Notes: a model not told the origin generated them from the sequence alone. 64,000 nucleotides of DNA from Acidimicrobiales bacterium (GCA_035294725.1 DATGKK010000145.1:4897-68896); one strand, 5' to 3'. Shown: positions 1,855 to 19,987, numbered from the stretch's first letter. Numbers and translations: made by a program.

Positions 1855-1862
1855 GGGTGCCG

Positions 1863-2216: not shown

Positions 2217-2336
2217 AGCCCCAGGCTACGGCGTCGCCGGCACCAGCGCCAAGAACGCTCGTCGCGGGTGCCCGGGTCGCGTGCCGGAGACCCTTGACTC
2301 GCCCGACGCGTGGTGTTAGGAAAGCGGGAGCGAGCG

Positions 2337-2365
2337 TATGCAGATATGCGTGAGTCCGCATGTGC
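2337..2365. promoter_or_regulatory. Candidate operator in the arsR/tusA divergent intergenic region
   Basis: TATGCAGATATGCGTGAGTCCGCATGTGC contains a direct TATGC-N3-TATGC and an inverted ATATGCG-N6-CGCATGT (6/7 match). It is unusually AT-rich for this DNA. A TTGACT hexamer lies at 2294-2299. Confidence 0.25.
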
Positions 2366-2427
2366 TTGCGAGCGGGCGATCGAAAGAGGGCCCGAGGGAG
2401 GGAGAGCGATGCCGGGGAACCACGGCG

Positions 2428-2667
2428 ATGCCTGAGGTGACGCCAGCTTCGACGCTGGACTGCACGGGCCTCCAATGCCCCTTGCCCGTCATCAAGACCG
2501 CCCAGGCGATCAAGGAGATCGGGATCGGCGAGGTTCTCGAGCTGATCGCCACCGATCCCGGGGTCGAGCCCGACATGAAGGCCTGGAGCTCGCGCACCGG
2601 GAACGAGCTCCTCGGCATCCGTCAGGAGGGCGAGGTCTTCCACGTCCTCCTCCGCCGGAGCGTCTAG
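2428..2667 (+). CDS. tusA: TusA/SirA-family sulfur carrier
   Basis: 79 aa from the internal ATG. It carries the LDCTGLQCPLPVIK motif (CPxP active-site Cys). The upstream part of the listed ORF is Arg-rich junk. Confidence 0.85.
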   Translation: MPEVTPASTLDCTGLQCPLPVIKTAQAIKEIGIGEVLELIATDPGVEPDMKAWSSRTGNELLGIRQEGEVFHVLLRRSV

Positions 2668-2676
2668 GCGCCGGCC

Positions 2677-3060
2677 GTGTGGAGCGACGACGAGGGCGAC
2701 AAGGTCCTCTACGTGCAGACACATGGCGTGGACGACCCCGGCCGGTGCGCGACGCCCTTTTTCCTCGCGGCCTCGGCGGCGGCGATGGAGTGCGAGGTGG
2801 CGATCTATTTCACGATGTACGGACCGCAGCTGCTGCAACGGAGCGTCGTCGACAAGATCGGCCCCAAGGGCGACCGCGGTCAGCCGCTCGCCTACTTCAT
2901 CAAGCAAGCCCGCGACCTCGGTGTCCGCCTGTACGTCTGCCAGCCCTCGCTCGACCTGAACGACCTCAGCCTCGAGGACCTCATCGACGGCGTCGAGATG
3001 ATCGGCGGCGCCGCCTTCAACGACCTCGCGATCCGAGCCGATGCCGTCGTCTCCTTCTGA
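2677..3060 (+). CDS. DsrE/DsrF-family sulfurtransferase
   Basis: 127 aa with a GTG start 10 nt after the tusA stop. DsrE-like fold signature (KVLYVQTHG..., YVCQPSLD). Confidence 0.8.
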   Translation: MWSDDEGDKVLYVQTHGVDDPGRCATPFFLAASAAAMECEVAIYFTMYGPQLLQRSVVDKIGPKGDRGQPLAYFIKQARDLGVRLYVCQPSLDLNDLSLEDLIDGVEMIGGAAFNDLAIRADAVVSF

Positions 3061-3802
3061 CGTGGCCGTCGCCGCCGTCGCCGAGCGGCCCTCGGTGAGG
3101 GGAGCCGCCGTGAAGGCCGAAGCGGTCGCCGGCTTCGAAGAGGTCAGCTACGAGGAAAAGCGTCGCCTGTTCGAGGAGATCAAGTCCGACCTGCGCTTCC
3201 CCGACTACCTCTACGGCTGCTACGAGTGCGGCATCTGCGTGGCGGTGTGCCCGTCTGCCCGCTTCTACGACTTCAGCCCGCGCCGCATCGCCCAGGCTGC
3301 CGCCCGCGAGGACGTCGAGCTCGTCTACCAGCAGATGCAGGAGGACATCTGGGAGTGCTCCCAGTGCTTCTCCTGCCTCCGCTGCCCCCGGGGCAACAAC
3401 CCGGGGGGGATCATCACGATCATGCGGGAGGTCGCCGTCAACCACGGCCTTGCCTCGGCCAAGGAGGCCCTCGAGGGCTACTCCCGGATCATCTACAAGA
3501 TCATGTCGACCGGGACGCAGGTCTCCCCTGACATGCTGCAGCCGGACGCCTTCCCGGACTGGGGGCCCGAGGTAGCCGACGTCTCGAACCAGCTCGCGCT
3601 CTGGCGCCGCGCGCTCCCGCCCGAGACCCTCCACACGACGTCGACCGGTTGGGACGTGTCCGAACGGACCCTGATCGAGCTGTACCTGATCTGGCTCGAG
3701 ACCGGTGCGCTCGACATGATCCGTGACGTCGACGAAGGCCTGCACATGATCCTCGAGGAGGTCATGGAGGAGCGCCTGGAGGAGGAGGGGATCGAGAGAT
3801 GA
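3041..3802 (+). CDS. hdrC1: Heterodisulfide-reductase-like subunit C (sHdrC1), 2x[4Fe-4S] ferredoxin domain
   Basis: Carries CYECGICVAVCP and CSQCFSCLRCP motifs. The ATG at 3041 overlaps the dsrE end by 20 nt. An alternative GTG lies at 3062. Confidence 0.85.
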   Translation: MPSSPSDVAVAAVAERPSVRGAAVKAEAVAGFEEVSYEEKRRLFEEIKSDLRFPDYLYGCYECGICVAVCPSARFYDFSPRRIAQAAAREDVELVYQQMQEDIWECSQCFSCLRCPRGNNPGGIITIMREVAVNHGLASAKEALEGYSRIIYKIMSTGTQVSPDMLQPDAFPDWGPEVADVSNQLALWRRALPPETLHTTSTGWDVSERTLIELYLIWLETGALDMIRDVDEGLHMILEEVMEERLEEEGIER

Positions 3803-3869
3803 AGACCCGAGCGCCCCGGGCGCGACCCGCCTGCACGACCCCGTCGCGACGACGCCGGAGGGAGGACTG

Positions 3870-5063
3870 ATGCCGATCCCTGTCGAGGTGATGCTGAAGA
3901 AGAAGGAGCGGTTCGAGCGGGACCCCGACACCGTGCCGGCCGACTTCCACGATGAGCTGTTCCGGCTTGAGGCAGAAGGCGAGCTCGTCGTGCAGCGGGT
4001 GCCGGACGGGGTTCCCGTCGTCGAGGTCCCGACAAAGTACGGCCGCCCGAAGCTCGTGCCGAAGGGCCATCTCTGGCACCACAAGTCGTGCGGCCAGTGC
4101 GGCCACATCCCCGGCTACTCCACCTCGATCTTCTGGGTGATGCGCAAGCTTGGCTACGACTACGAGGATCCGAGGGACCAGACGTCGTGCACGGCGTGGA
4201 ACTACTACGCGAGCGCGACGTCGAACGAGGCCGCGCAGGCGGCGGTCGCGCTGCGCAACTTCGCGACGGCCTACGAGAGCGGATACTTCCCCCTCATCCA
4301 CTGCGGCACCTCCTACGGCCACTACAAGGAGGTGAGGGCCGAGCTGCTTCGTCACCCGGAGCTCCGTGCCGAGGTGCGACGGGTCATGGACAAGCTCGGG
4401 AAGCCCGTCGTGCTGCCCGAGGAGATCGTCCACTACTCGGAGTGGTTCTACGCGATGCGGGACGAGATCGCTGCCCACCAGGTCCGGGACTTCTCGGGCA
4501 TCGCCGTAACGGTGCACCCCGCCTGTCACTACTACAAGCTTGTCGAAGGTGACGCCATCTACGACCCGGACGTCTACGGAGGCCAACGGACTGCCGTCGT
4601 GACGGCCCTCGCCGAAGCGCTTGGCGCCGAGGTCCGCTCCTACTCGACGTGGTTCGACTGCTGCGGCTTCGGCTTCCGTCACATCCTCGTCCAGCGCGAC
4701 TTCACCCGGTCGTTTGCAACGATCCGCAAGATCGAGGTGATGAAGGAGGAAGCGGACCCCGACGTCGTGCTGACCCACGACACCGGCTGTGTCACCACCC
4801 TCGACAAGAGCCAGTTCGCCGCTCAGGCCCACGGCCGCAACGTCGGCGTCGCCGTCATGTCGGAGGCGCAGTTCGCGGCGCTCGCCATGGGCGCCCATCC
4901 CTACAAGGTCTGCCAGCTCCACTGGCACTCCGCCGACTACCGCCCGCTGCTCGAGAAGATGGGCATCGACTGGGAGCAGGCGTGGGCGGAGTTCGAGGCC
5001 GACGTCGCGCGTCTCGAGCGGGGGGAGAAGGAGTTTCTCAGCTGGGAGGACGTGGACGCCTGA
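3870..5063 (+). CDS. hdrB1: Heterodisulfide-reductase-like subunit B (sHdrB1), CCG domains
   Basis: Cys-rich CCG-type segments (SCGQCGH, HPACHYYK, FDCCGFGF). A GGAGGGAGG RBS lies upstream. Confidence 0.9.
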   Translation: MPIPVEVMLKKKERFERDPDTVPADFHDELFRLEAEGELVVQRVPDGVPVVEVPTKYGRPKLVPKGHLWHHKSCGQCGHIPGYSTSIFWVMRKLGYDYEDPRDQTSCTAWNYYASATSNEAAQAAVALRNFATAYESGYFPLIHCGTSYGHYKEVRAELLRHPELRAEVRRVMDKLGKPVVLPEEIVHYSEWFYAMRDEIAAHQVRDFSGIAVTVHPACHYYKLVEGDAIYDPDVYGGQRTAVVTALAEALGAEVRSYSTWFDCCGFGFRHILVQRDFTRSFATIRKIEVMKEEADPDVVLTHDTGCVTTLDKSQFAAQAHGRNVGVAVMSEAQFAALAMGAHPYKVCQLHWHSADYRPLLEKMGIDWEQAWAEFEADVARLERGEKEFLSWEDVDA

Positions 5064-5083
5064 GGGCGCCGAGCACAGCTCTC

Positions 5084-5107
5084 GGCGGGGCACGCCGTCG
5101 CCCCGCC
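5084..5107 (+). other. Intra-operon GC stem-loop between hdrB1 and hdrA
   Basis: GGCGGGGC-acgccgtc-GCCCCGCC forms a perfect 8-bp stem, followed by ACTTTC and then the hdrA RBS GGGGAG. Confidence 0.3.
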
Positions 5108-5125
5108 ACTTTCAGGGGAGAAGAG

Positions 5126-6196
5126 ATGACGACTGAGCAGGGCGCAGAGCAGGTGGTGGCCGTCATCGGCGGCGGCCCGGCCGGACTCGCCGCAGCGAGG
5201 ACGGCCGCCGACCTCGGTGCTCGGGTCGCGTTGATCGAGCGGCTCGACTTCCTCGGCGGCATGCCGATCATCGAGAACTACGCCGCCATCACGCCCAATC
5301 TCGAGCCGGCCGAGGTGGCGATGGGACGGATGACCGCCGCCGTGGAAGGCGACCCTCGCATCGAGGTGCTGCTCGGCAGCGAGGTGACGTCCTGCGAAGG
5401 TGAGGCCGGCGGGTTCACGCTCGCTCTCGCCGTCCCCGGCGGGAGCCGGCAGCTCACAGCAGGCGCGGTCGTCGTCGCGACCGGTTTCCAGCACTTCGAC
5501 CCCGGCCGCGAGACCCAGATGTACGGCTACTACGAGTTCCCCGACGTCATCGCCCTCCAGGATCTCGAGGCGATGCTGAAGGACCACCACGTGGTCCGGC
5601 CCTCGAACGGCGAGCCGCCGGCCCGGATCTGCTTCGTCCAGTGCGTGGGCAGCCGGGACCGCCAGATCGGCAACGAGTACTGCTCGAAGGTGTGCTGCGG
5701 GATCGCTTCGAAGGAGGCGATCGAGGTTCGCCAGCAGCTCCCTGGCTGCGAGGTGTTCATCTTCTACATCGACATGCGGATGTACGGCTACTGGGAGAAC
5801 CAGATCTACTGGCCGGCCCAGGAGCAGCACCACGTCCAGTACGTGAAGGGCGTCATCAGCGAGGTCCTGCCGAAGGGAGACCGCCTGCTCGTCCGCGGCG
5901 AGGACACCACGATGGGCCGGCCGATGGAGGTGTTGATGGACCTCGTCGTGCTCTCGGTGGGCATGGAGCCCTCGCCGGGAACCCGCAAGATGGCCGCCGT
6001 CCTCGGCATTCGCCAGAACCGCTACGGCTTCATCGACGCGGCCCATCCCCCGCTCGACACCGTGAGCACGAGCCGCCCCGGGGTGTTCGCGGCGGGAGCG
6101 GCCCTTGGGCCGGCCGACCTCGAGGACAGCGTCTCGACGGGCGCCGCCGCCGCGTCCCGTGCGGTCGCACTGCTGCGGAGCCCGGTCGGGGCGTGA
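5126..6196 (+). CDS. hdrA: Heterodisulfide-reductase-like subunit A (sHdrA), FAD plus [4Fe-4S]
   Basis: VAVIGGGPAGLAAA dinucleotide fold and a CVGSRDRQIGNEYCSKVCC cluster motif. Internal ATG with a GGGGAG RBS. Confidence 0.9.
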   Translation: MTTEQGAEQVVAVIGGGPAGLAAARTAADLGARVALIERLDFLGGMPIIENYAAITPNLEPAEVAMGRMTAAVEGDPRIEVLLGSEVTSCEGEAGGFTLALAVPGGSRQLTAGAVVVATGFQHFDPGRETQMYGYYEFPDVIALQDLEAMLKDHHVVRPSNGEPPARICFVQCVGSRDRQIGNEYCSKVCCGIASKEAIEVRQQLPGCEVFIFYIDMRMYGYWENQIYWPAQEQHHVQYVKGVISEVLPKGDRLLVRGEDTTMGRPMEVLMDLVVLSVGMEPSPGTRKMAAVLGIRQNRYGFIDAAHPPLDTVSTSRPGVFAAGAALGPADLEDSVSTGAAAASRAVALLRSPVGA

Positions 6197-6942
6197 GCCG
6201 AGCAGTGGCTGTCGTGCCCGGACCCACGGTCGACGTCCTTGCGGCCGGCGAGTTCATGTCCGAGGTCCTCGCCCGGGTCGAGCGGACTGTCCTCGACCAG
6301 ATCGCCGGCGAGCTCGAGGCCAAGCACCAACTGTTCTCGCGGCTGCTCGCCGACGGCCGGGCGCGTTCGCTCGACGCGGCCGGAGCGCGCGAGGTGCTGC
6401 GGGCGATCTTCGCCACTCGCCGCCGGGCGGACGGGATCGTCGCCGAGCTCGGCCCCGAGCGGCTCGCCCACGCGGTGGCGGAGCTGCTGGACGGCGAGGG
6501 TCCCCTGGCCGCGCGCTTCGCGGAGTTCGACGAGCGCCTCAGCCCCGTCGCCGATGCCGCCTTCGACCTGCCCGGGGAGTTGCTCCACTTCACCTATCCC
6601 GATCGCTACTGGCTCTGGACGCGCTGGATGTGGGACCCGCGGATCGAGACCGGCTCACTCCGGCTCGTGACGAGCGAGGAGCTCGACCTCACCGCCGAGG
6701 GCCGGGGCGAGGGCTACCTGCGCGTCGGACAGGCGGTCGCGCTCGTCCACGAGATGGGGCGTGCCGGCGGCTTCGTCACTGGCGAGGAGCTGTTCGGCAC
6801 CGACGTCTTCCTTGCCTGTGTCTACGCCATCTACATGTACACCGTCCTTCGCATGCGGATGACCCAGGAGTTCAACCGCATCGTGCCCGAGCTGCCGGAC
6901 CTCGTTCGCCGGCTGCTCGGAGTCCGTCACCTTCCCCGCTGA
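6193..6942 (+). CDS. Conserved hypothetical protein at the 'hyp' position of hdrC1B1A-hyp-hdrC2B2
   Basis: The GTG at 6193 overlaps the hdrA TGA (GTGA). About 249 aa with GC3-rich coding. No motif recognised. An alternative ATG lies at 6256. Confidence 0.7.
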   Translation: MSRAVAVVPGPTVDVLAAGEFMSEVLARVERTVLDQIAGELEAKHQLFSRLLADGRARSLDAAGAREVLRAIFATRRRADGIVAELGPERLAHAVAELLDGEGPLAARFAEFDERLSPVADAAFDLPGELLHFTYPDRYWLWTRWMWDPRIETGSLRLVTSEELDLTAEGRGEGYLRVGQAVALVHEMGRAGGFVTGEELFGTDVFLACVYAIYMYTVLRMRMTQEFNRIVPELPDLVRRLLGVRHLPR

Positions 6943-6950
6943 GGAGCGCC

Positions 6951-8255
6951 ATGCCGATCGGAGGTCGCAAGCAAGCACCCACCGTCGTGGAGGAGGAGAT
7001 GGCCGTTGTCACCTCGGCCATCTCCGGGCGGACCTCTGAGCTCCCGGCGATGTGGAACCGCATGTTGGAGCCGCGGGTCCTGCGTGACTACGCGGCCGGC
7101 GGCTTCGCCCGCCTCTCGGAGCTCGAGGGAGGGGAGTCGCTCGAGTGGTGCTACGGCTGCGGCAAGTGCGTGCCGGTCTGCCCGGTGGACCTCGTGGGCG
7201 AGTACGGCCCTCGCAAGCTCCACCGCAAGGTGCAGTCCGGCGTCGACCTGTTGGCCGACGACGACCTGTGGCTCTGCACGACCTGCATGAACTGCCTGAG
7301 GGTCTGCCCCAAGCAGGTCGACATGGTGCAGGTGATGCCGGCGGCGAGGGGAGCGGCCGTCGCCTCTGCTGCGGTGCCCGCCGAGTTGCAGGAGGTGTTC
7401 GAGAAGACCTTCCGCTACGGCAACTGCCTCGGGGAGAACCCCCGACGGCGCCACGCCTGGACCCGTGGCGCCGGCGTGCCCGTGCGCGTCCTCGCCGACG
7501 AGCCGGGGCCTGTCGACGTCCTTTTCTACGTCGAGGACTACTGGAGCTACCACCCTCGCGGGCAGCAGGCGGCCCAGGCATTCGCCCGGGTGCTCACGGC
7601 CCTCGGGGTCGACTTCGCCATCCTCGGCGCCGAGGAGAAGACGGTCGGCGATTCGCAGCGGCTTGCCGGCGAGGCGGGCCTTTTCGAAGCGCTCATGGAG
7701 GAGGTCGCCTCCACCCTCAGCCGGTACGAGTTCCGCCGGATCGTCACGCCGGACCCGCACGGCTTCAACGCCCTCGTGAAGGAGTACCCCAAGCGTGGCC
7801 ACCACTACGAGGTGCTGCACTACACGCAGCTGCTGGCGCCCCTCGTGCCGAAGATCTCGTGGGCACGGAGCCTCGATCGGGTCGTCACCTTTCACGATCC
7901 CTGCTATCTCGGGCGCCACAACGGCGAGTACGACGCGCCCCGCGCCCTCATCGAGGCGATCCCAGGCATCCGCCTCGTCGAGATGGGCCGCTGCAGGGAG
8001 AACGGCTACTGCTGCGGCGGCGGCGGCGGCGGGATGTGGCTCGACGGCTTCACCTCGAACCACACGACCGAGCGCCTGTCCGAGCGGAGGGTCCGCGAGG
8101 CGGCCGAGACCGGCGCCGAGGTCCTCGCCGTCTGCTGCCCCTACGAGGTCTCGCGCTTCGAGGACGCCGCCAAGTCGACCGGCAACGAGCAGCTCCAGGT
8201 CCGAGACATCGTCGAGCTCCTCGACGAGGCGATGGGAGCCCCCGGTGCCAGCTGA
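6951..8255 (+). CDS. Fused HdrC2-HdrB2 (HdrD-like) Fe-S/CCG protein
   Basis: N-terminal CYGCGKCVPVCP and CTTCMNCLRVCP, followed by HDPCYLGRH and YCCGGGGG CCG motifs in one 434-aa ORF. A GAGGAG RBS lies at 6941. Confidence 0.85.
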   Translation: MPIGGRKQAPTVVEEEMAVVTSAISGRTSELPAMWNRMLEPRVLRDYAAGGFARLSELEGGESLEWCYGCGKCVPVCPVDLVGEYGPRKLHRKVQSGVDLLADDDLWLCTTCMNCLRVCPKQVDMVQVMPAARGAAVASAAVPAELQEVFEKTFRYGNCLGENPRRRHAWTRGAGVPVRVLADEPGPVDVLFYVEDYWSYHPRGQQAAQAFARVLTALGVDFAILGAEEKTVGDSQRLAGEAGLFEALMEEVASTLSRYEFRRIVTPDPHGFNALVKEYPKRGHHYEVLHYTQLLAPLVPKISWARSLDRVVTFHDPCYLGRHNGEYDAPRALIEAIPGIRLVEMGRCRENGYCCGGGGGGMWLDGFTSNHTTERLSERRVREAAETGAEVLAVCCPYEVSRFEDAAKSTGNEQLQVRDIVELLDEAMGAPGAS

Positions 8256-9351
8256 GCGAGAGAGCGAGGGCCAGCCACGGCTGGAGCGGGAGACCGCCCC
8301 ACTGCGCGTGCTCCGCTTCGGGCGCGTGTCGCCGCTGCGCTCGCAGACGCTCTGGCACGCCATCGCCGAGGGGGTGTCGGCGGGAGCCTCGCCGACCCTC
8401 TCGTTCATGCGTCCCGACTCGCCGTACGTGTCGGTCGGTTACCACCACGACCTCGGGCATGTGGACCTCGAGGCCTGCGCCCGGGCGGGTGTGCCGGTCT
8501 ACCGGCGGATGGCCGGAGGCGGCGCCGTCTACCTCGACGACGCCCAGCTCTTTTTCCAGATCGCCGTTCCCGCCTCGATCCTGCCGGCCGTGCGCAGCGA
8601 GGCCGTCGCGAGGCTCCTGTCGCCGGCCCTCCCCGCATTCGAGGCTGCCGGGCTGCCGGCCCGTCTCGACGCGACGGGGGAGATCGTCGTCGGCGACCGG
8701 AAGGTGTGCGGCCACGGAGCTGCGCAGGTCGGCCGTGCCGTGGTCGTGGTGGGCAACCTCATCGAGCGCTTCGACCACGCCGCCGCCGCCGCCCTCCTGC
8801 GGGCGCCAGGAGGGGAGGCCGCGGCAGAGGCGCTCCAGCTGATGCGCCGGTACGTCGGTCCGGACCCGGCGAGCGAGGTCGACGCGGCGGCCTTCGAGAC
8901 GGCTGCGGTCCGCTCCTATGCCGATGCGCTCGGCCGCGAGCCGGTCGCCGGCGAGCTCAGCGCGCTCGAGCAGGACGCGCTCCAGCGCTGGGACGAGACC
9001 CTCGAGTCCGCCGAGTGGCGGGCAGGACCGGCGGCCCGCGCTCTGCGTGCCTGGCAGCTCAAGGTGCGCGGCGGGGTCTTCCTGGTCGCCGCCGAGGATG
9101 GCGGCACGCGGGTGCGCGCAACCGTGGTCGACGAGCGCCTTCGCGCCGTTTGTGTCGAGGATCCAGGCCTGAACGACGCCGCTGCGCTGGCGTCGGCACT
9201 CTCCGGGCACCTGCTGCCCGAGCTCCCATCCGTCCTCGCCGGTCTCGGCGAGCCCGGGAGGCGGCTGTCGGCCGCCTTCGCTGCCGCCAGCACGGGCGAG
9301 CTCGCCGCCATCGCAGGGCGCGCGACCGCGGCAGTTCGGGAGGCCTCGTGA
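8245..9351 (+). CDS. Lipoate-protein ligase paralogue 1 (sLpl(AB)-like)
   Basis: LplA-like motifs RRMAGGGAVYLD and GDRKVCGHGA. The GTG at 8245 overlaps the preceding gene by 11 nt, so the start is uncertain. Confidence 0.75.
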   Translation: MPAERESEGQPRLERETAPLRVLRFGRVSPLRSQTLWHAIAEGVSAGASPTLSFMRPDSPYVSVGYHHDLGHVDLEACARAGVPVYRRMAGGGAVYLDDAQLFFQIAVPASILPAVRSEAVARLLSPALPAFEAAGLPARLDATGEIVVGDRKVCGHGAAQVGRAVVVVGNLIERFDHAAAAALLRAPGGEAAAEALQLMRRYVGPDPASEVDAAAFETAAVRSYADALGREPVAGELSALEQDALQRWDETLESAEWRAGPAARALRAWQLKVRGGVFLVAAEDGGTRVRATVVDERLRAVCVEDPGLNDAAALASALSGHLLPELPSVLAGLGEPGRRLSAAFAAASTGELAAIAGRATAAVREAS

Positions 9352-9815
9352 GCATCCCCCGCGAGCCTGAGGTCGTCGCCGTCTCCGGCTACCCGGTGCG
9401 CCTCGACCTTTCCTACGACCCCCAGAGCGAGCTGTGGGTCGAGCTGGTCGGCGAGCACCGAGCTCGGGTCGGCCTCGACCCGCTCAGCGCGGAGACGAGC
9501 GGCACCCTCGCCCAGCTCGCTCTCGTCACCGTCGGCACGCAGGTGCGCCGTGGCGAGCCGCTCGGCTCGATCGAGGCTGAGAAGTTCGTCGGCCCCCTCC
9601 TCTCCCCGCTCACCGGCACGGTCGCGGCCAGGAACGACGCCGTGCTCTCCCGCCCCTCTGCCGTGGAGGACAATCCGTATGCGGCCTGGCTGGTGGAGAT
9701 CGAGAGCGACGCTGCCGAGGACGAGCTCGGCGGTCTTGTGACCGGGACCGAGGCGGTGTCGCACTTCGCCGCTCGTGTCGAGAGGTACCGCCGTGAGGGG
9801 GTGCTCGCCGAGTGA
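9348..9815 (+). CDS. lbpA: GcvH-like lipoate-binding protein (LbpA), Cys-free paralogue
   Basis: 155 aa with an H-protein fold pattern and a putative lipoyl-Lys in GSIEAEKFVGPLLSPLTG. GTGA overlap with the upstream gene. Confidence 0.8.
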   Translation: MSIPREPEVVAVSGYPVRLDLSYDPQSELWVELVGEHRARVGLDPLSAETSGTLAQLALVTVGTQVRRGEPLGSIEAEKFVGPLLSPLTGTVAARNDAVLSRPSAVEDNPYAAWLVEIESDAAEDELGGLVTGTEAVSHFAARVERYRREGVLAE

Positions 9816-10852
9816 CCGCTGTCTCGCCCGCCCGCGCCGGCTCGGCCGAGGCACTCGCCGTGCGCCGCGCCCACTTCCCCGACGTCATGGAGTTCTACGC
9901 ACCCGGCCTCAAGCGCTGGGAGACCACGGAGTGGAGGCCGGAGAACCCGCGCCGCTTCCTGCCGGTCTCGGTCACCGGAGCTGCCTGCGCCCTCCAGTGC
10001 GATCACTGCCAGGCCAAGGTGCTGGAGGGGATGGTCTCGGTACGGGCCGGAGCCGACCTGTACGACCTTGCTCGCTCCCTGAAGGAAAAGGGCAGCGACG
10101 GCCTGCTGGTCTCGGGCGGCTCCACCCGCTCGGGCGGTGTGCCGCTGCGCCGGCATCTCGCCCACGTGCCACGGATTCGCGACGAGCTCGGCATGAAGGT
10201 GATCGTCCACTCAGGGGTCGTCTCACCCGAGCTCGCCGCCGACCTCGCCGCGGCCGGCGTCGACGGGGTGATGCTCGACATCATCGGCGCCGACGAGACG
10301 ATCCGCGAGGTCTACCACCTCGATCTCCGGGCGGCCGACTTCGAGCGGTCGCTCTCGCTGCTGGCGTCGGCGGGGCTCAGGATCATTCCCCACATCGTCC
10401 TCGGCCTTCACTACGGCCGCTTCCTCGGCGAGCACCACGCCCTCGAGATGATCCGCCGCCACCCGGTGTCGACGCTCATCCTCGTCGTGCTCGTCCCGCT
10501 CGTCGGCACGCCGATGGCGCACTTGCCGCCGCCGCCAGTCAAGGACGTGGTGGGCTTCTTCGAGACCGCCCGCCTCGCCATGCCCGAGACGAAGGTCAAC
10601 CTGGGGTGCGCCCGCCCGATGGGCGCCATGAAGGTCGAGCTCGACGCGGCCGCGGTCGACCTCGGTCTGAACGGCATCGCCTACCCGGCCGACGGGACGA
10701 TCGCGTACGCCCGCTCGCGGGGCCTCGTGCCCCGCCTGTACGAGTGGTGCTGCTCGCTGACCTGGGCGGGCGACGAGGGCGGCGAGTACGCCGAGGTCAC
10801 CCTGGACCAGGCCGACCAGGGTGCCCTTCCGGCAGGGGCAGGGCTGCGATGA
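9812..10852 (+). CDS. Radical-SAM protein, LipS1/LipS2-type lipoyl synthase component (A)
   Basis: CALQCDHC (CX3CX2C) motif. GTGA overlap with lbpA. I could not resolve which LipS type this is. Confidence 0.8.
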   Translation: MTAVSPARAGSAEALAVRRAHFPDVMEFYAPGLKRWETTEWRPENPRRFLPVSVTGAACALQCDHCQAKVLEGMVSVRAGADLYDLARSLKEKGSDGLLVSGGSTRSGGVPLRRHLAHVPRIRDELGMKVIVHSGVVSPELAADLAAAGVDGVMLDIIGADETIREVYHLDLRAADFERSLSLLASAGLRIIPHIVLGLHYGRFLGEHHALEMIRRHPVSTLILVVLVPLVGTPMAHLPPPPVKDVVGFFETARLAMPETKVNLGCARPMGAMKVELDAAAVDLGLNGIAYPADGTIAYARSRGLVPRLYEWCCSLTWAGDEGGEYAEVTLDQADQGALPAGAGLR

Positions 10853-11973
10853 CGGCCACCTGGCGCCTTCTTGCCGACGACGGCGTCGGCGCGGCCGAGG
10901 GTCTCGCCTTCGACGAGGCGATGATGGCCGGCTACGCCCGAGACGCTGCTCCACGCCCGCCGACGCTGCGCCTCTACACCTACGCCGACCATGCCGCGCT
11001 CGTCGGTAGGTACCAGCATCTCGAGGCCGAGGTCGATCTCGACGCCTGCCGCTTGCTCGGCGTGGAGGTGAACCGCCGCCCGACGGGCGGCGGGGCCATC
11101 ATCATGGGCCGCTCTCAGCTCGGAGTCGCCGTCGCCACCCGCGCCCCCGCGGCCGAGCGGCCCCGCGAGCTGCTCGAGCGCTTCTCGAGGGGCATCATTG
11201 CCGGCCTTCGGCGCCTTGGGCTCGACGCGGGCTTCCGAGGCAAGAACGACCTCGAGGTCGGCGGCCGGAAGGTGGCAGGGCTCGGTCTCTATCTCGACGG
11301 CGCCGGAGCCCTCCTGTTCCACGCCAGCATCCTGGCCGGCCTCGACGTCGAGACGATGCTCGCTGTCCTCAAGGTCCCGGCCGCGAAGCTCGGCGACAAG
11401 GCCGTCGCCCTCGTCTCCGAACGCGTGACGACCGTCAGCCGCGAGACCGGGAAGGACTTGGACGGCCCTGCGCTGCGCGAGGCCGTCGCGGACGGGGTCG
11501 CCGAGGCCGTCGGCGCCGAGCTCGCGCCGGGGGTCGCCGAGGAAGAGGAGCGACGCCTCGCCCGCCGCCTTGTTGCCACGAAGTACTCGACGGCCGAGTG
11601 GCTCGCCCAGCGCAGCCCGCAGCTAGACGCGACGGCGACCTCGGTCTTCAAGTCGTCGGCAGGTCTCGTGCGTGTCTATCTGAGCCTTCAGGGGGAGACG
11701 ATCAAAAGCGTCCTGTTCACGGGCGACCTGAACGACCTGCCCCCCGCCCTTGTGCGCCTCGAGGCGGCCCTCACCTGGAAGCGCCTCGAGCCGCGCACGC
11801 TCTCCCGGCTCGTGGCGTCGTGCCTGGACGGCGAGACGGAGTCCGCGGGGCTCGATCCCGCGGCGCTCGTGGACGCCCTGATCGAGGCGGCGAGCCGGGC
11901 GGCCGCCCGCGAGGTCGCCGCCCCCAACCGAGTTGGCTCGTGCTACTTCCCCGAGGCGGTCACCCCACGATGA
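10849..11973 (+). CDS. Lipoate-protein ligase paralogue 2
   Basis: RRPTGGGAIIMG and GGRKVAGLGL motifs. ATGA overlap with the upstream radical-SAM gene. Confidence 0.8.
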   Translation: MTATWRLLADDGVGAAEGLAFDEAMMAGYARDAAPRPPTLRLYTYADHAALVGRYQHLEAEVDLDACRLLGVEVNRRPTGGGAIIMGRSQLGVAVATRAPAAERPRELLERFSRGIIAGLRRLGLDAGFRGKNDLEVGGRKVAGLGLYLDGAGALLFHASILAGLDVETMLAVLKVPAAKLGDKAVALVSERVTTVSRETGKDLDGPALREAVADGVAEAVGAELAPGVAEEEERRLARRLVATKYSTAEWLAQRSPQLDATATSVFKSSAGLVRVYLSLQGETIKSVLFTGDLNDLPPALVRLEAALTWKRLEPRTLSRLVASCLDGETESAGLDPAALVDALIEAASRAAAREVAAPNRVGSCYFPEAVTPR

Positions 11974-13100
11974 GCACCACCCGTCTTCCTCTCGTCGCCC
12001 CGCCTTCCGCCGTGCCCGGTGACAGGACTCCGAGTGAACCCTGCGCCGCTCCAGAGGTGAGCCCGGACTGGGTGAGGATCTCAGGGGCGAGCGCGATCGC
12101 GCTCCGCTTCCGCTCGGGCCGGTTCGGGCGCAGCTTCGAGTTCGGGGGGATCAACCTCCTCCTCAACTACGAGGACGGCTGCCGCTCCGACTGTGCCTAC
12201 TGCGGGCTTGCCCGCACCCGGCCGGGGACCTACGAGGACAAGTCCTTCATCAGGGTGGAGTGGCCCCTCGTTCGCACCGACGAGCTGACCGAGCGGATGG
12301 CTCGGTTCGAGCCGAGCCTCACGAGGCTGTGCATCTCGATGGTGACCCATCCCTTCGCCTACAGGGACACCTGTGACATCACCGAGCGGATCCGCAGAGC
12401 CGTCGACACGCCACTGTCCATCCTCGTCGCCCCGCCGACGCTCAACCGGCGCCGTCTCGAGCGCTTCCGCGAGATCGGCGTCGACATGATCGGGATCGGG
12501 CTCGACGCCGTCACCGAAGAGCTCTTCCGGTCACTGCGCAGCGACGTCCCGGCCGGCGGGGCGGGGCTCAAGTGGGACCAGTACTGGCAGGTGGTCCGTG
12601 ATGCCCGTGAGGTCTTCGGCCCGTGGAAGGTGAACTGCCACACCCTCGTCGGCCTCGGGGAGAGCGACCGCGACCTCGTCGAGATCTTCGTCCGTCTTAG
12701 GGACCAGGAGATCTTCTCCTACCTGTTCTCCTTCAACCCCGAGCCGGACTCGCGTCTCGGCGACGCGCCTCGCGCTCCGCTGCGCCGGTGGCGCCGGATC
12801 CAGCTCGTGAAGCACCTGGTCGAGACGGAGGGGTTCGGCCCCGAGGACTTCCGCTTCGAGGACGACGGCTCGCTCGCGCTCGTCGGCGCCCCGCCAGTAG
12901 TGCTCGAGCAGGTCGTCGAGACTGGCGAGCCCTTCGTCACGAACGGCTGCCCCAGCTCGAGCGGGGAGCCGGGCTGCACCCGTCCGTACGGGTCGTACCG
13001 GCCGTCGGAGCCGTTCCGCGACTTTCCCTTCCGTCCGGACCCGGCCGACCTCGCCGGGATCAGGACCGACCTCGCCCTCCACGAGATCACCGAGCCCTGA
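11970..13100 (+). CDS. Radical-SAM protein, BioB/LipS-type (B)
   Basis: CRSDCAYC (CX3CX2C) motif. ATGA overlap with the upstream ligase. Confidence 0.8.
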   Translation: MSTTRLPLVAPPSAVPGDRTPSEPCAAPEVSPDWVRISGASAIALRFRSGRFGRSFEFGGINLLLNYEDGCRSDCAYCGLARTRPGTYEDKSFIRVEWPLVRTDELTERMARFEPSLTRLCISMVTHPFAYRDTCDITERIRRAVDTPLSILVAPPTLNRRRLERFREIGVDMIGIGLDAVTEELFRSLRSDVPAGGAGLKWDQYWQVVRDAREVFGPWKVNCHTLVGLGESDRDLVEIFVRLRDQEIFSYLFSFNPEPDSRLGDAPRAPLRRWRRIQLVKHLVETEGFGPEDFRFEDDGSLALVGAPPVVLEQVVETGEPFVTNGCPSSSGEPGCTRPYGSYRPSEPFRDFPFRPDPADLAGIRTDLALHEITEP

Positions 13101-13111
13101 AGGAGCCTTCG

Positions 13112-13873
13112 ATGCGGATCGCCGTCCTCCTCAAGCAGGTCCCCGACCTCGTCGAGGACCTCGAGCTCGCCCCTGACGGGACCGACGTCGACCGCGAGTT
13201 CCTGTCCTTCGTCCTCAACGAGTACGACGACCAGGCGCTCGAGGAGGCGCTCTGTCTGAAAGAGTCCGCCGGCGCCGAGGTCGTCGCCGTCGCGCTCGAC
13301 GAGCCCGAGGTCGACCAGTGCCTCTACACCGCGCTCGCCAAGGGCGCGGACCGTGCCGTGAAGCTCGGCGGGGTCGGGGAGGGCTGGATCGACGGGCACC
13401 GGCGCTCCGCCATCTTTGCGGCCTGGCTCGCCGAGCAAGGGGCCGATCTTGTGCTCACCGGCGTGCAGGCGGCTGACGACCTCGACGGCCAGCTTGCACC
13501 GCTGCTCTCGGCTCGCCTCGGGCTGCCGCACGCCTCGGTGGTCGTCCACGTGGACCTCAACGGCGCGGTTGCCCTGGTCCGCCAGGAGCTCGGTGGCGGA
13601 GCCGCCGCCGAGGTGGAGGTGCAGCTCCCTGCGGTGCTTGGGATCCAGGCGGCACGCCAGGCTCCCCGGTACGCCTCCATCAGCCGCATCCGCCAGGTCC
13701 AGCAGGCCGGAGGGATCGAGGAGGTCGCCGCGCCGCCTGCCGAGGGTGGCCCGGGCTACCGGTTGGTCCGCCTCTACGCACCCGAGGCCGCCGGCCACGC
13801 GGAGATGCTCACCGGGTCGGCCGGAGAGGTGGCCGAGCGCATCGTCGAGCTGATCCGGGGCAAGGGCCTGTGA
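13112..13873 (+). CDS. etfB: Electron transfer flavoprotein beta subunit
   Basis: MRIAVLLKQVPDLVEDLEL... is a typical EtfB N-terminus. An AGGAG RBS lies at 13101. Confidence 0.9.
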   Translation: MRIAVLLKQVPDLVEDLELAPDGTDVDREFLSFVLNEYDDQALEEALCLKESAGAEVVAVALDEPEVDQCLYTALAKGADRAVKLGGVGEGWIDGHRRSAIFAAWLAEQGADLVLTGVQAADDLDGQLAPLLSARLGLPHASVVVHVDLNGAVALVRQELGGGAAAEVEVQLPAVLGIQAARQAPRYASISRIRQVQQAGGIEEVAAPPAEGGPGYRLVRLYAPEAAGHAEMLTGSAGEVAERIVELIRGKGL

Positions 13874-13910
13874 GTGGCCGGGGCCGGAACGAGACGAGGA
13901 GGACAGCGCA

Positions 13911-14873
13911 GTGAGCAACGACGTGCTGGTGCTGGCGGAGCACCGGGATGGTGCCGTGAGCGACATCTCCTTCGAGCTGCTCGCCAAGGCGCGTGAGCTC
14001 GCCGGAGGCTCCGGAGGCCGGGCGGTCGTGCTGCTGCTCGGCGCGACAGAGCTTGCCCGAGAGCTCGGCGGCGCCGACTTGGTGCGCTCCGTCGAGCATC
14101 CTCTGCTCGACCGCTACAACCCGGAGGCGTACGAGCGGGTGGTGCGAGCGGCGCTCGAGGAGATCGAGCCGCGCCTGTTCCTCACCTCGACGACGACGGT
14201 CGGCCTCGACCTCGCCGGAGCTCTCTCGGTGGCGAGCGACACGCCGCTCGTCTCCTATGTCTGTCGTCTCGAGGCTGCAGGCGACAACGTGGTGGCGACG
14301 GCCCAGATCTACGGCGGGAAGCTCCTCGCCGAGGTCGAGTTGCCGCGGCCCCGGGCGATCTGCGCCGTGCTGGCCGGTTCGTTCCCCGTTCCGGCAATGG
14401 ACGGCGAGCAGGCACCGCCGGTCGAGCCGCTCGAGGTCGGCGGCCTCCTCGACGACCTGCGAACGGCCGTCACCTCTGTGATCGTGCCCGAGGCCGGCGA
14501 CGTCGACATCACCTCTGCCGACCTCCTCGTCTCGGTCGGGCGGGGTATCGGGAACCAGGGCAACCTCGAGGTCGTCGAGGAGCTCGCGGAGGCGCTCGGT
14601 GCCCCGCTCGCTGCGTCACGGCCGCTCGTCGACCAGGGGTGGCTGCCAAAGTCGCGCCAGGTCGGAAAGTCCGGCCTCAAGGTCAAGCCGCGGATCTACC
14701 TCATGCTCGGCATCTCCGGTGCCCCTGAGCACCTCGAGGGGATACGGGAAGCCGAGCTCGTGATCGCCTGCAACACCGACGCCAAGGCGCCCATCTTCGA
14801 AGTCGCCGACTACGGCACGACCGTCGACCTGTTCGACCTCGTGCCGGAGCTCCTGGACCGGGTCAAGGCCTGA
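13911..14873 (+). CDS. etfA: Electron transfer flavoprotein alpha subunit
   Basis: VLVLAEHRDG... N-terminus and the C-terminal FAD motif SRQVGKSGLKVKPRIYLMLGISGAPEHLEG. Confidence 0.9.
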   Translation: MSNDVLVLAEHRDGAVSDISFELLAKARELAGGSGGRAVVLLLGATELARELGGADLVRSVEHPLLDRYNPEAYERVVRAALEEIEPRLFLTSTTTVGLDLAGALSVASDTPLVSYVCRLEAAGDNVVATAQIYGGKLLAEVELPRPRAICAVLAGSFPVPAMDGEQAPPVEPLEVGGLLDDLRTAVTSVIVPEAGDVDITSADLLVSVGRGIGNQGNLEVVEELAEALGAPLAASRPLVDQGWLPKSRQVGKSGLKVKPRIYLMLGISGAPEHLEGIREAELVIACNTDAKAPIFEVADYGTTVDLFDLVPELLDRVKA

Positions 14874-14905
14874 GCCCGGCGAAGGACAGCCGCGAAGGAG
14901 AGGCC

Positions 14906-16915
14906 GTGATCGTGCGCATTGCCATCGGAGGGGCGGTCACGGCCGTCGCGCTCGCCCTCGCGGCTCGCCGCCTCTACCGCCTCGGTCGGCTGGTCCGCTC
15001 GGGGGCTCCCGCGCCCGGCCGGACGAGCAAGGCGGCGCGCCGCCTCGGCGCCGAGATCGTCGAGGTGCTCGGCCAGCGAAAGATCCTGAGACGGCGCCAG
15101 TCGGGGATCCCGCACGCCCTCGTCTTCTGGGGCTTCCTCGTCCTTTTGTTCACCGTGGTCGAGGCGTTCGGCGACGTCTTTGCAAACCGCCGGTTCGCGA
15201 TCCCGCTGATCGGGCATGCGGCGGCGCTCGGCTTCGTCGAGGACCTCTTCATCCTCGTCGTCCTCGGCGGCGTGGTCGCCTTCACCGTGATCCGCACAAT
15301 CGACTCCCCGGCCCGGCGCGAGCGCCGTTCCCGCTTCTACGGGTCGCACACGAAAGCGGCGTGGGTCGTGCTCGCCATGATCGCCGTCGTGATGGTGAGC
15401 CTGCTCGGCTACCGGGCCGCCCAGGTGAACACCGGCGACTTCCCCTACGGGGACTGGGCCTTCGCCTCGCACGCCCTGGCGAGCCTGCTCCACCCGCTTG
15501 GCCGCGGCGTCAACTCGGTGATCGAGACGACCCTGCTCCTCGTCAACGTCGCCGCCATCATGGGCTTCCTCGTCTTTGTCACCTACTCCAAGCACCTCCA
15601 CATCTTCTTGGCACCGCTCAACATCGCCTTCTCGCGTCGCCCGCGCGCGCTCGGGGCGCTCGACGTGCCGGGCTCCACGGTCGGCGCCGAGCACATCGAG
15701 CAGCTGAGCTGGAAGCAGCTGCTCGATCTCGTCACCTGCACCGAGTGCGGCCGGTGCCAGGCGGCCTGCCCGGCGTGGACGACGAACCGGCCGCTCTCGC
15801 CCAAGCTGCTCGTGATGGACCTGCGTGACGAGCTCTTCGCCGCGTCGGGCCGTCTTCTCTCTCCCGGTAGGGACGCGCCCGCGACGAAGCTCGTCCCTGA
15901 CGTCGTCCGCGCCGAGACGGTCTGGTCGTGCACGACCTGCGGCTCCTGCGTGGAGCAGTGCCCGGTCGACATCGAGCACATCGACACGATCGTCCACCTC
16001 CGCCGGCGGCTCGTCGACGAGGGCCAGATCGAACCCGGGGTCCAAGAGGTGCTGCAGCGGATCGCCCAGCAGGGCAACTCCTTTGGGAAGTCGGATCGGA
16101 TGCGTGCGCGCTGGACCCGGGAGCTCGGCTTTCCCGTGAAGGACGCCAGGAAGGAGGCGGTCCGGTACCTGTGGTTCGTCGGGGACTTCGCCTCGTTCGA
16201 CGAGCGCCTGCAGGAGCTCTCGCGCGGCCTCGCCCACCTTCTGCACGGGGCAGGGGTCGACTTCGGCCTTCTGTACGAGGGCGAGCGCAACGCCGGCAAC
16301 GACGTTCGCAGGATCGGCGAGGAAGGTCTGTTCGAGATGCTCGTCGAGCGGAACCTCGCCTCGCTCGGAGAGGCCAGCTTCGAGGAGATCTTCACCACCG
16401 ATCCGCACACCTTCAACACCCTTCGGAACGAGTACCCCGCGTACGGCCTCGACAAGCCGGTGCTCCACTACAGCCAGCTGCTGCAGCGCCTCCTTGCGGC
16501 AGGCGACCTCGCCGTCGAGCCGCTCGGGCTTGCGGTCACCTACCACGACCCCTGCTACCTCGGCCGGCACAATCGGGTCACCGAGCCCCCTCGGGCAGTG
16601 CTGAGGGCGCTCGGCTGCTCGCTCGTCGAGATGCCCCGTCACGGCACGAACACGTTCTGCTGCGGCGCCGGAGGTGGGCGGATCTGGATGTCGGACGACC
16701 CCTCTCTCGGCGAGCGCCCGAGCGAGAACCGGATCCGCGAGGCGGTGGCGCTCGGGGTCGACTACTTCGTCGTCGCCTGCCCGAAGGACTACGTCATGTA
16801 CTCCGACGCCGTGAAGACGACCGGCAACGAGGACCGCCTAAAGGTCGTCGACCTTGTCCAGCTCACCGAGCGGGCGCTTCGCGCTCCGGCGCTCCGCGAG
16901 CCCGAGACGGTCTGA
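14906..16915 (+). CDS. Membrane-anchored Fe-S/CCG oxidoreductase (EtfD / Etf:quinone oxidoreductase-like, HdrD/DsrK-type catalytic domain)
   Basis: About 240-aa N-terminal polytopic segment with conserved His (PHALVFWGF, SKHLHIF). This is followed by CTECGRCQAACP, CTTCGSCVEQCP, HDPCYLGRH and FCCGAGGG. Confidence 0.85.
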   Translation: MIVRIAIGGAVTAVALALAARRLYRLGRLVRSGAPAPGRTSKAARRLGAEIVEVLGQRKILRRRQSGIPHALVFWGFLVLLFTVVEAFGDVFANRRFAIPLIGHAAALGFVEDLFILVVLGGVVAFTVIRTIDSPARRERRSRFYGSHTKAAWVVLAMIAVVMVSLLGYRAAQVNTGDFPYGDWAFASHALASLLHPLGRGVNSVIETTLLLVNVAAIMGFLVFVTYSKHLHIFLAPLNIAFSRRPRALGALDVPGSTVGAEHIEQLSWKQLLDLVTCTECGRCQAACPAWTTNRPLSPKLLVMDLRDELFAASGRLLSPGRDAPATKLVPDVVRAETVWSCTTCGSCVEQCPVDIEHIDTIVHLRRRLVDEGQIEPGVQEVLQRIAQQGNSFGKSDRMRARWTRELGFPVKDARKEAVRYLWFVGDFASFDERLQELSRGLAHLLHGAGVDFGLLYEGERNAGNDVRRIGEEGLFEMLVERNLASLGEASFEEIFTTDPHTFNTLRNEYPAYGLDKPVLHYSQLLQRLLAAGDLAVEPLGLAVTYHDPCYLGRHNRVTEPPRAVLRALGCSLVEMPRHGTNTFCCGAGGGRIWMSDDPSLGERPSENRIREAVALGVDYFVVACPKDYVMYSDAVKTTGNEDRLKVVDLVQLTERALRAPALREPETV

Positions 16916-16924
16916 GGCCGGGCC

Positions 16925-17245
16925 GTGCGCTGCCCCTTCTGCGAAGCCGACGCAGCGCCTCGGGCCCTCCACTCTCATCTGGAGGCGGCGCACCCCGAGG
17001 GGGTGGTCGTCACCGAGTCCCCCGGCGGCCGCCTCGCCTACAAGGTGAGCTGCCCGCGTTGCGGCGCGCACTACGAGCACGCGGTGAAGGGACGAAGCGG
17101 CACGGGTGCCTTCGTCGCGGAGCATGCCCGTGAGATCCGGCTCGTCGGCTTCGACATGCTCGTCAACCATCTCATCGCCGAGCACCCCGGTGATGAGGGC
17201 GGCGCCGAGGACCCGGCTCCGGCTCACAGCGAGGAGGAGAGTTGA
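16925..17245 (+). CDS. Small Cys/His protein (two CxxC knuckles, repeated HLxAxHP motif), unknown function
   Basis: 106 aa and GC3-rich. Motifs are CPFC-x11-HLEAAHP and CPRC...NHLIAEHP. Its stop overlaps the TTG start of the next lbpA (TTGA). Confidence 0.65.
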   Translation: MRCPFCEADAAPRALHSHLEAAHPEGVVVTESPGGRLAYKVSCPRCGAHYEHAVKGRSGTGAFVAEHAREIRLVGFDMLVNHLIAEHPGDEGGAEDPAPAHSEEES

Positions 17246-17679
17246 GCACCGTCAACCAGTGCGACATCCCCGACGACCTCTACTACCTCGTCGAGCGGCA
17301 CGTCTGGGCGCGCCTCGAGGGGGACACGGTCGTCGTCGGTCTGTCCGACGTGGCGCAGAGCTTGGCGAAGACGATCGTCTCGGTCTCGGTGAAAGACCCA
17401 GGACGCCCGGTGCGCAAGGGGAGGAGCATCGCCACGGTCGAGAGCGGGAAGTGGGTGGGCCCGGTCCCCTCGCCCGTGAGCGGCGAGATCGTCGAGGTGA
17501 ACGAGGTTCTCCGCTCGGCACCGGCCACCCTCAACGCGGACCCGTACGGGGCGGGGTGGATCGCGCGCATTCGCTGCGAGGACTGGCGGTCCGACTCGGC
17601 GGACCTCCTCACCGGGCCGGCCGCTGTCGAGGCGTACCGTGCCTTCCTCGACGCCGAAGGCATCCGCTGCGGCGAGTAG
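17242..17679 (+). CDS. lbpA: GcvH-like lipoate-binding protein (LbpA paralogue)
   Basis: 145 aa with VESGKWVGPVPSPVSGEIVEVN around the lipoyl-Lys. Cys7 and a C-terminal IRCGE. Confidence 0.85.
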   Translation: MSTVNQCDIPDDLYYLVERHVWARLEGDTVVVGLSDVAQSLAKTIVSVSVKDPGRPVRKGRSIATVESGKWVGPVPSPVSGEIVEVNEVLRSAPATLNADPYGAGWIARIRCEDWRSDSADLLTGPAAVEAYRAFLDAEGIRCGE

Positions 17680-17691
17680 GCAGGGTGAACG

Positions 17692-18141: not shown

Positions 18142-18271
18142 GCGGTGCTTCCCGGGTCGAAGGAGGGCTCTCGTGCCCGCGGAAGAGTCGCGGGCTGCGA
18201 GCTGGCGCCCGAGCGGACCCGCCTTCTTGGCTCGGCACGGAGCCGGGTACTCCGAGGAAGGGAGAAGGACA

Positions 18272-18772: not shown

Positions 18773-18809
18773 CGGCGCCGGTTCCCGCACACCTCTCTCT
18801 GTCGACACC

Positions 18810-19888: not shown

Positions 19889-19987
19889 AGCTGCTGGTGG
19901 CGGGCTGCTGGCTCGGAGACCGGGGCCACACCGTTGTGAGCTGGGTGCTCGAGGGGGTCGCGGTGGCCATCTGAGGGGCGGCGCGGA

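Follow-up and report, generated by a model that had tools for sequence, protein, structure and literature searches.

How three lipoyl acceptors are served by maturation genes that include two ligases is the question raised by a stretch of DNA of 64,000 nucleotides from an Acidimicrobiales bacterium (GCA_035294725.1, DATGKK010000145.1:4897-68896). In this stretch, referred to below as the window, five genes on the plus strand between positions 8245 and 13100 encode an LplA-family lipoate:protein ligase (lig1), a GcvH/LbpA-like lipoyl acceptor (LbpAa), a LipS1-like radical S-adenosylmethionine (radical-SAM) protein, another LplA-family ligase (lig2) and a LipS2-like radical-SAM protein. An earlier reading of the same DNA, the original prediction, had described them as a duplicated, interleaved lipoate-assembly module. 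It is very probable that these genes are an LbpA-maturation cassette inside a type II sHdr operon. Their order within it is constant, and they change position only together, as a unit. The new element is its first pair: lig1 is always accompanied by an LbpA-like protein without the two hallmark cysteines, and this pair is confined to type II sHdr loci.

The five-gene cassette and its relatives

Genes were placed with frame plots of GC3 (third-position GC) and start-codon mapping in a window of ~70% G+C, and the window proteins were searched with Pfam and NCBIfam models. The second LplA-family paralogue, lig1 (8245-9351, 368 residues), has a catalytic and a C-terminal accessory domain. LbpAa (9348-9815, 155 residues) matches Pfam GCV_H with an expectation value (E) of 1e-19. 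The LipS1-like subunit of the lipoyl synthase (rSAM-1; 9812-10852, 346 residues) has NF053742 as its best match and carries a CX3CX2C motif at C59/C63/C66, with further conserved cysteines at C266, C313 and C314. The ligase between lipS1 and lipS2, lig2 (10849-11973, 374 residues), matches Pfam PF21948 and TIGR00545. The LipS2-like subunit (rSAM-2; 11970-13100, 376 residues), best matched by NF053743, has its CX3CX2C motif at C71/C75/C78 and further conserved cysteines at C121, C327 and C336. All five genes are on the plus strand. Gene mapping and family matches confirm the place and the identities proposed earlier for the five genes, and the motifs quoted at the time (GDRKVCGHGA, GGRKVAGLGL, CALQCDHC and CRSDCAYC) were all found in the cassette proteins. 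The predicted joining of the genes by 4-nucleotide overlaps was likewise seen at all four internal junctions, each being GTGA or ATGA, and the start of lig1 overlaps the stop of the upstream shdrB3 by 11 nucleotides.

A database search at E<=1e-3 gave 408 relatives of lig1. Most of the best 120 share 50-60% identity with it (the four closest 68-74%), with lengths of ~335-340 residues. Around each of three distant members, from a Gemmatimonadota metagenome-assembled genome, an Acidimicrobiia metagenome-assembled genome and a metagenome contig, the full operon is present. A scan with the lig1 alignment, limited to a single genome of each species, gave 109 genomes with a best identity of 68%, mostly Acidimicrobiia and Actinomycetes and including Streptomyces caeni, two Amycolatopsis and Gordonia rhizosphera. 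The window proteins were mapped onto 80 retained loci, from 80 species-level genomes that are mostly Actinomycetota. The order lig1-LbpAa-LipS1-lig2-LipS2 was found in exactly this form in 62 of the 62 complete loci, an arrangement that is far beyond chance; the other 18 of the 80 end at contig borders, are consistent with the cassette order, and no locus breaks it. Wherever the contig allows, LbpAa follows lig1, the two always occur together, and they occur solely in type II sHdr loci.

The place of the cassette is less constant than its order. It lies between shdrB3 and etfB in 50 of the 62 complete loci, after the last lbpA gene (lbpAc), at the operon end, in 10 (L014, L021, L027, L031, L036, L048, L061, L065, L071, L072), and is transcribed divergently from the shdr operon in two (L078, L082). 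In these last 12 loci, etfB comes directly after shdrB3. The cassette is therefore one mobile unit, separable from etfBA. Locus L061 has an additional lig1-like match downstream of lipS2. In L028 (19930-20958) and four other Acidimicrobiia loci, a gene for a type 2A encapsulin shell protein (SrpI-like, Pfam E 2e-102) lies just downstream of the sHdr cluster.

The background given with the original prediction on sLpl(AB), LipS1/LipS2 and LipT agrees with Tanabe 2023 (PMC10332631). Like the sLpl(AB)-LipS1/LipS2(-LipT) pathway of sHdr oxidizers (PMC6067878; PMC10332631), the cassette has an LplA-family ligase flanked by lipS1 and lipS2 and linked to lbpA and shdr genes. Unlike that pathway, it lacks lipT and includes, within the five translationally coupled genes, a further LplA paralogue (29% identical to lig2) and a further acceptor that is without the LbpA cysteines. 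The overall cluster is the same as in the Group III, or type II, clusters of Saccharomonospora marina, Sulfobacillus acidophilus and Kyrpidia tusciae (PMC6067878, PMC11094781). Group III unites Actinobacteria and Firmicutes with hdr-like genes and two or three lbpA linked to etfBA (Cao 2018, PMC6067878). For S. marina, Fig. 2-source data 1 of that study gives three lbpA, radSAM1-lplA-radSAM2 and 'no GGred', with etfBA and Lbp biosynthesis genes linked; for Sulfobacillus and Kyrpidia, the study gives lplA-lbpA-lplA-radSAM-radSAM and a third ligase-like gene beside the other two lbpA. The present cassette differs from the published Group III listing in its order, lig1-lbpA-lipS1-lig2-lipS2, and in lying between shdrB3 and etfB. 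That clusters of this type have two ligases, three acceptors and no LipT is already documented.

The '2. lplA gene' column of the Cao 2018 table is filled for many Proteobacteria, and Gordonia rhizosphera is scored 'no' in it (PMC6067878). Yet the locus of G. rhizosphera NBRC 16068 (L083) carries a lig1 homologue (match 10001-10828) between shdrB3 and lbpAa, so that lig1 seems to have been overlooked in Actinobacteria by this table. The role of the second ligase is discussed neither in the main text of Cao 2018 nor in the other literature searched. The locus belongs to a documented cluster type, and its interest remains in the lig1-LbpAa pair, strictly conserved and found solely in type II sHdr systems.

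Two ligases and a cysteine-free acceptor

The two ligases are 29% identical over 173 residues, and on this low identity they are read as ancient paralogues. The description of a duplicated, interleaved module holds for the presence of two ligases; the word duplicated is misleading at such a distance, and the layout is better read as lig1-LbpAa followed by lipS1-ligase-lipS2. A recent tandem duplication is ruled out by the 29% identity and by the separate conserved families to which the two proteins belong.

The make-up of an LplA-type ligase, with a catalytic domain, an LplB-like accessory domain and a catalytic lysine, was found in both proteins, through the fold model for lig1 and through the reach of TIGR00545 into the C-terminal domain for lig2. 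The Pfam model LplA-B_cat (PF21948) matches lig1 with E 1e-19, over residues 37-186 only, and lig2 with E 8e-35; TIGR00545 covers most of lig2 (residues 33-330). An AlphaFold2 model of lig1 has two domains, with a mean confidence (pLDDT) of 91.2 and a predicted template-modelling score (pTM) of 0.88. In Foldseek comparisons, its catalytic domain superimposes on Thermoplasma acidophilum LplA with template-modelling (TM) scores of 0.84-0.86, and full-length LplAs align over ~360 columns. The orientation between the two domains fits all solved full-length LplAs poorly (TM ~0.5, root-mean-square deviation 11-14 Å). LplA structures rank above the LipB entries 2qhs and 1w66, and among NCBIfam models at E<=0.01 solely LplA-type ones match lig1 or lig2, with no match to the LipM, LipL or LipB models.

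Both families were mapped onto the positions of E. coli LplA, and the percentages below are shares of family members. The lysine equivalent to K133 (Lys153 in lig1, whose loop reads RRMAGGGAVYLD, and the lysine within GGRKVAGLG in lig2) is present in all lig1 sequences (100%) and in 98% of those of lig2; R70, G73 and G75 are invariant (100%) in both families, and both retain the RRxxGGG lipoate-binding loop. At H79, lig1 has L and lig2 has M, and D80 is D in lig1 (100%) and G in lig2. N121-D122 corresponds to (L/G)E in lig1 and ND in lig2, and H149 to V/C in lig1 and H in lig2. The pocket positions E20, W37 and F147 are occupied by W (99%), V/M and V in lig1 and by D, Y and L in lig2. Together with H149, these are pocket positions known from LplA engineering. 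Y37, N121, D122 and H149 (E. coli numbering) of lig2 are T. acidophilum-like, and lig2 is also closer overall to T. acidophilum LplA (PDB 2ARS, E 2.5e-24) than lig1 is (E 1.3e-06). This closeness, and the place between lipS1 and lipS2, where sLpl(AB) lies in proteobacterial clusters, point to lig2 as the putative sLpl(AB) equivalent. A C-terminal tail of lig2, GSCYFPE (residues 363-369, window 11935-11955), is 60-90% conserved in 63 family members; it is present neither in E. coli LplA nor in lig1.

The weaker Pfam match of lig1, restricted to residues 37-186, and the loss of the equivalents of His79 and His149 could be taken as signs of a decayed, or purely regulatory or scaffolding, pseudo-ligase, and the original prediction had considered one degenerate or regulatory copy. 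This is extremely unlikely. The equivalents of the catalytic lysine, R70, G73, G75 and D80 are 100% conserved in lig1. In an alignment of 33 lig1 sequences, 48-70% identical to the window protein, 68 columns are invariant, including Lys153, the RRM-GGG loop and residues of the C-terminal domain. The two-domain LplA fold is modelled with confidence, and the gene is fixed in all related loci. The same substitutions are found in Mhp-Lpl of Mycoplasma hyopneumoniae (PDB 6JOM), an active ligase with the loop RRDTGGGAIYLD and Gly at the His149 position (PMC7186572). It shares with lig1 the loop RRxxGGGA(I/V)YLD and a non-His residue at position 149, although it is only 12% identical in the Foldseek alignment and comes from another biological context. 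Since this active enzyme has them too, the YLD loop and the non-His149 of lig1 are compatible with catalysis. The loss of the catalytic lysine, named in the original prediction as a sign of decay, was found in neither ligase on alignment with E. coli LplA. Both proteins are probably active, conserved LplA-type enzymes.

Three LbpA paralogues had been predicted and were confirmed, LbpAa in the cassette and two Pfam-matched proteins encoded downstream on the plus strand, LbpAb (17242-17679) and LbpAc (17692-18141). An LbpA has a strictly conserved lipoyl-lysine, and two strictly conserved cysteines, one N- and one C-terminal, are its most conspicuous feature (Cao 2018, PMC6067878). The lysine is kept in all three paralogues, in the context EAEKFVGP in LbpAa. 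Both hallmark cysteines are present in LbpAb and LbpAc of the window and in 57 of 57 LbpAb and 35 of 35 LbpAc sequences. LbpAa of the window contains no cysteine at all; 60 of its 73 family members have none, the N-terminal one occurs in one of the 73 and the C-terminal one in 0 of the 73. LbpAa is 28-34% identical to LbpAb and LbpAc, versus 43% between these two, and it stays under the GcvH cutoffs (75.2 bits against 117 for NF002270, 63.1 against 115.85 for TIGR00527). By its sequence, LbpAa is atypical both as an LbpA and as a GcvH.

The explanation that joins the identity and architecture of the cassette to acceptor-specific ligases is, as a whole, somewhat favoured. In it, the cassette is the known lipS1-ligase-lipS2 trio without lipT, preceded by an anciently diverged lig1 that is translationally coupled to the cysteine-free LbpAa, and the two ligases would divide the labour by acceptor. 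As the sLpl(AB) equivalent, lig2 would attach octanoate or lipoate to acceptor lysines at the expense of ATP, and LipS1/LipS2 would then insert the two sulfurs. LbpAa may be too divergent for lig2, with 28-34% identity and no cysteine, and lig1 would be dedicated to this neighbour. The acceptor-specific ligases of the original prediction may thus be counted as a live explanation; that the two work strictly in parallel, each on its own acceptor, is a tentative proposal, the preferred one among the readings but short of probable.

Several observations weigh against this explanation. In lig2, the loop reads (I/V)MG in place of (F/Y)HD, and no precedent for this was found in a proven ligase. Both radical-SAM proteins score below the curated cutoffs of their families: rSAM-1 reaches 223.7 bits (E 3e-66) with LipS1 NF053742, where the cutoff is 230, and rSAM-2 reaches 180.5 bits (E 5e-53) with LipS2 NF053743, where it is 270. 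Their next-best families, BioB and MSMEG_0568, follow at ~35 and ~53 bits, respectively. The Firmicutes listed in the Cao 2018 table (PMC6067878) have the third ligase-like gene beside the cysteine-bearing lbpA genes and two ligases with the third lbpA, a layout that acceptor specificity alone leaves unexplained. Finally, co-variation was calculated from pairwise distances in sets of 37 and 20 loci, after the background distance, taken from the sHdr and Etf proteins, had been removed. The partial correlation of lig1 with LbpAa is 0.70 (37 loci) and 0.60 (20 loci; permutation p 0.001), and that of lig2 with LbpAa is 0.59 and 0.45 (p 0.002), whereas neither ligase co-varies with LbpAb or LbpAc in either set (r -0.25 to 0.18). 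In such a mirror-tree comparison, the pairs are non-independent and the cassette genes may share their history, and the LipS1 terms, unstable between the sets, are not relied on. The result suggests, weakly, that both ligases are tied to LbpAa, and because of the lig2-LbpAa term a relay fits better than strictly parallel ligases.

In such a relay, the main rival, which is possible but doubtful, LbpAa would be a GcvH-like assembly platform and not a sulfur carrier. lig2 would load octanoate onto it, LipS1/LipS2 would sulfurate it, and lig1 would transfer the lipoyl group to LbpAb and LbpAc as an amidotransferase, comparable to LipL of B. subtilis or human LIPT1; the roles of lig1 and lig2 could be swapped. 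The parts list of the GcvH-dependent relays (LipM-GcvH-LipA-LipL in B. subtilis, LIPT2-GCSH-LIAS-LIPT1 in humans), two PF03099-superfamily enzymes, a GcvH-like carrier and a lipoyl synthase, is matched one to one in the fixed cassette. The differences are that both enzymes are of the two-domain LplA type here, not LipM or LipL, and that the synthase is LipS1/S2, not LipA. That a two-domain LplA homologue can work as a transferase has a precedent in human LIPT1. LbpAa lacks the cysteine pair thought to bind the sulfur substrate in LbpAs, both ligases co-vary with it and neither with LbpAb or LbpAc, and in the Firmicutes of the Cao 2018 table (PMC6067878) the unit of two ligases, lbpA and two radical-SAM genes is separate from the shdr operon. 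Against the relay, sLpl(AB) and LipS1/S2 of type I systems mature LbpA directly, with no intermediate carrier (Tanabe 2023, PMC10332631), and neither ligase matches a LipM, LipL or LipB model. The accessory domain of lig1 is strongly conserved, as is typical of adenylating ligases. A common history of the cassette genes may be all that lies behind the mirror-tree signal, whose LipS1 terms were not robust between the two sets. The more specific proposal, that type II sHdr builds lipoate on the cysteine-free, GcvH-like LbpAa, with one LplA-type enzyme loading, LipS1/LipS2 sulfurating and lig1 relaying the product to the sulfur-carrying LbpAs, is slightly more doubtful still. The two ligases might instead differ in the acid that they activate, lig1 for example using octanoate for de novo synthesis and lig2 scavenging lipoate. 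Such a specialization would fit the remodelled dithiolane end of the lig1 pocket (E20 to W in 99%, W37 to V/M, F147 to V, H149 to V/C), lig2 being T. acidophilum-like there (D, Y, L, H). It is nevertheless unlikely: a pocket read from an alignment alone is a weak guide, the strict lig1-LbpAa pairing would be left unexplained, and the characterized sLpl(AB), like most LplAs, already accepts both octanoate and lipoate (PMC10332631).

The sHdr operon and the electron supply

The cassette sits within an array of 21 co-directional genes with intergenic gaps of -11 to 67 nucleotides, in the order tusA, dsrE, shdrC1B1AHB3, cassette, etfB, etfA, emo, a small CxxC gene, two lbpA, DsrE-like, Rieske and glutaredoxin-like. 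All are on the plus strand and, upstream of the cassette, assigned by Pfam/NCBIfam matches: tusA (2338-2667), dsrE3 (2677-3060) and the type II sHdr core, made up of shdrC1 (3062-3802), shdrB1 (3870-5063), shdrA (5126-6196), shdrH (6193-6942) and shdrB3, an HdrC+CCG fusion (6951-8255). Downstream lie etfB (13112-13873, Pfam ETF), etfA (13911-14873, Pfam ETF_alpha) and emo (14906-16915, Pfam Fer4 and CCG). Type II sHdr is defined by shdrC1B1AHB3 and etfAB within a single syntenic cluster (PMC11094781). As shdrC1B1AHB3 (3062-8255) and etfBA (13112-14873), followed by emo, form such a cluster here, the locus is of type II; its operon is the published type II arrangement, corresponding to Group III of Cao 2018. 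The order of the genes from tusA to shdrB3 is repeated in related loci. An ArsR-type, sHdrR-like regulator gene, divergently transcribed on the minus strand (1863-2216, Pfam HTH_5 E 4e-17), also recurs beside the cluster in these loci.

Between emo and lbpAb, a gene for a small protein of 106 residues with two CxxC pairs (16925-17245, weak zf-Di19 match) overlaps lbpAb by 4 nucleotides, and it has the same position in at least 36 related loci. After lbpAc come Pfam-matched genes for a DsrE-like protein (18173-18772), a Rieske protein (18810-19475) and a glutaredoxin-like protein (19472-19888), all on the plus strand as well. The glutaredoxin-like gene overlaps the Rieske stop by 4 nucleotides and probably closes the sHdr operon. 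No promoter or terminator signal in 1800-20400 rose above the level expected from shuffled sequence. Elsewhere in the window, a mycothiol S-transferase gene fits an actinomycete host. The region of ~36.5-40.2 kb has a slightly lower G+C and almost no family matches, and the sole match of an open reading frame of 609 residues at 38254-40083, on the minus strand, is a weak one to CBM_5_12.

No Pfam match to a geranylgeranyl-reductase-like flavin (FAD) protein, as LipT is, was obtained among the predicted genes of the window, and the ten unassigned families that recur most often beside the 80 related loci, each in at most 7 of them, are unrelated to LipT. LipT is encoded by only ~53% of the bacteria that contain LipS1/S2, and the S2 table of the same study gives LipS1=1, LipS2=1, LipT=0 and sHdr=1 for Acidimicrobium ferrooxidans and a related genome (Tanabe 2023, PMC10332631). 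'No GGred' is given for the Actinobacteria, and for most of the Firmicutes, that have this cluster type (Cao 2018, PMC6067878). The predicted absence of lipT holds for the window and the related flanks, but it is hardly a noteworthy trait, being common among LipS1/S2 bacteria and already tabulated for this lineage.

With no LipT in the window, the original prediction had proposed, from adjacency only, that Etf could be the reductant of the radical-SAM pair, a matter independent of the ligases. etfB begins 11 nucleotides past the end of lipS2 and is its direct neighbour in 50 of the 62 complete loci, Etf is always within the same gene cluster, and the best match of EtfA is the bifurcating CarE (6FAH, E 1e-54). 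EtfB, the subunit that would hold the bifurcating FAD, has its best match in the beta subunit of the non-bifurcating electron-transferring flavoprotein (ETF) of Methylophilus methylotrophus (1O94, E 4e-38, versus 7e-25 for the bifurcating CarD). The two subunits (13112-14873) point to different Etf types. The potentials of non-bifurcating ETFs are far too positive for the reduction of radical-SAM clusters. When the cassette is elsewhere, as in 12 of the 62 loci, etfB directly follows shdrB3; etfBA hence belongs with shdrB3 and emo and not with the radical-SAM genes. Moreover, etfAB and emo are defining parts of type II sHdr, and EtfAB-EMO is proposed to pass electrons from sHdr to menaquinone (PMC11094781). 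Taken together, the positional variants, the menaquinone proposal and the ETF potentials make Etf an unlikely reductant of LipS1/LipS2, and its use in place of LipT is highly improbable. EtfBA-Emo would carry electrons from sHdr to menaquinone, and LipS1/LipS2 would receive theirs from a general low-potential carrier encoded elsewhere.

Lipoyl assembly in type II sHdr

Cytoplasmic sulfur oxidation by the sHdr-LbpA pathway is widespread, and there has been hardly any experimental work on the type II form. The type II maturation genes are one invariant five-gene cassette, which raises the testable question of how its three lipoyl acceptors are served. Two tempting but weak ideas, decay of a ligase gene and Etf as the radical-SAM reductant, are not supported. 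For annotation, the lig1 subfamily, with the motifs LRSQTLWH and K(V/I)CGHGA(G/A)Q, can be set apart from sLpl(AB), and the cysteine-less LbpAa subfamily from LbpA1/LbpA2. If the relay version were true, bacteria would have arrived here independently at a GcvH lipoyl relay, made from two-domain LplA ligases and an archaeal-type lipoyl synthase.

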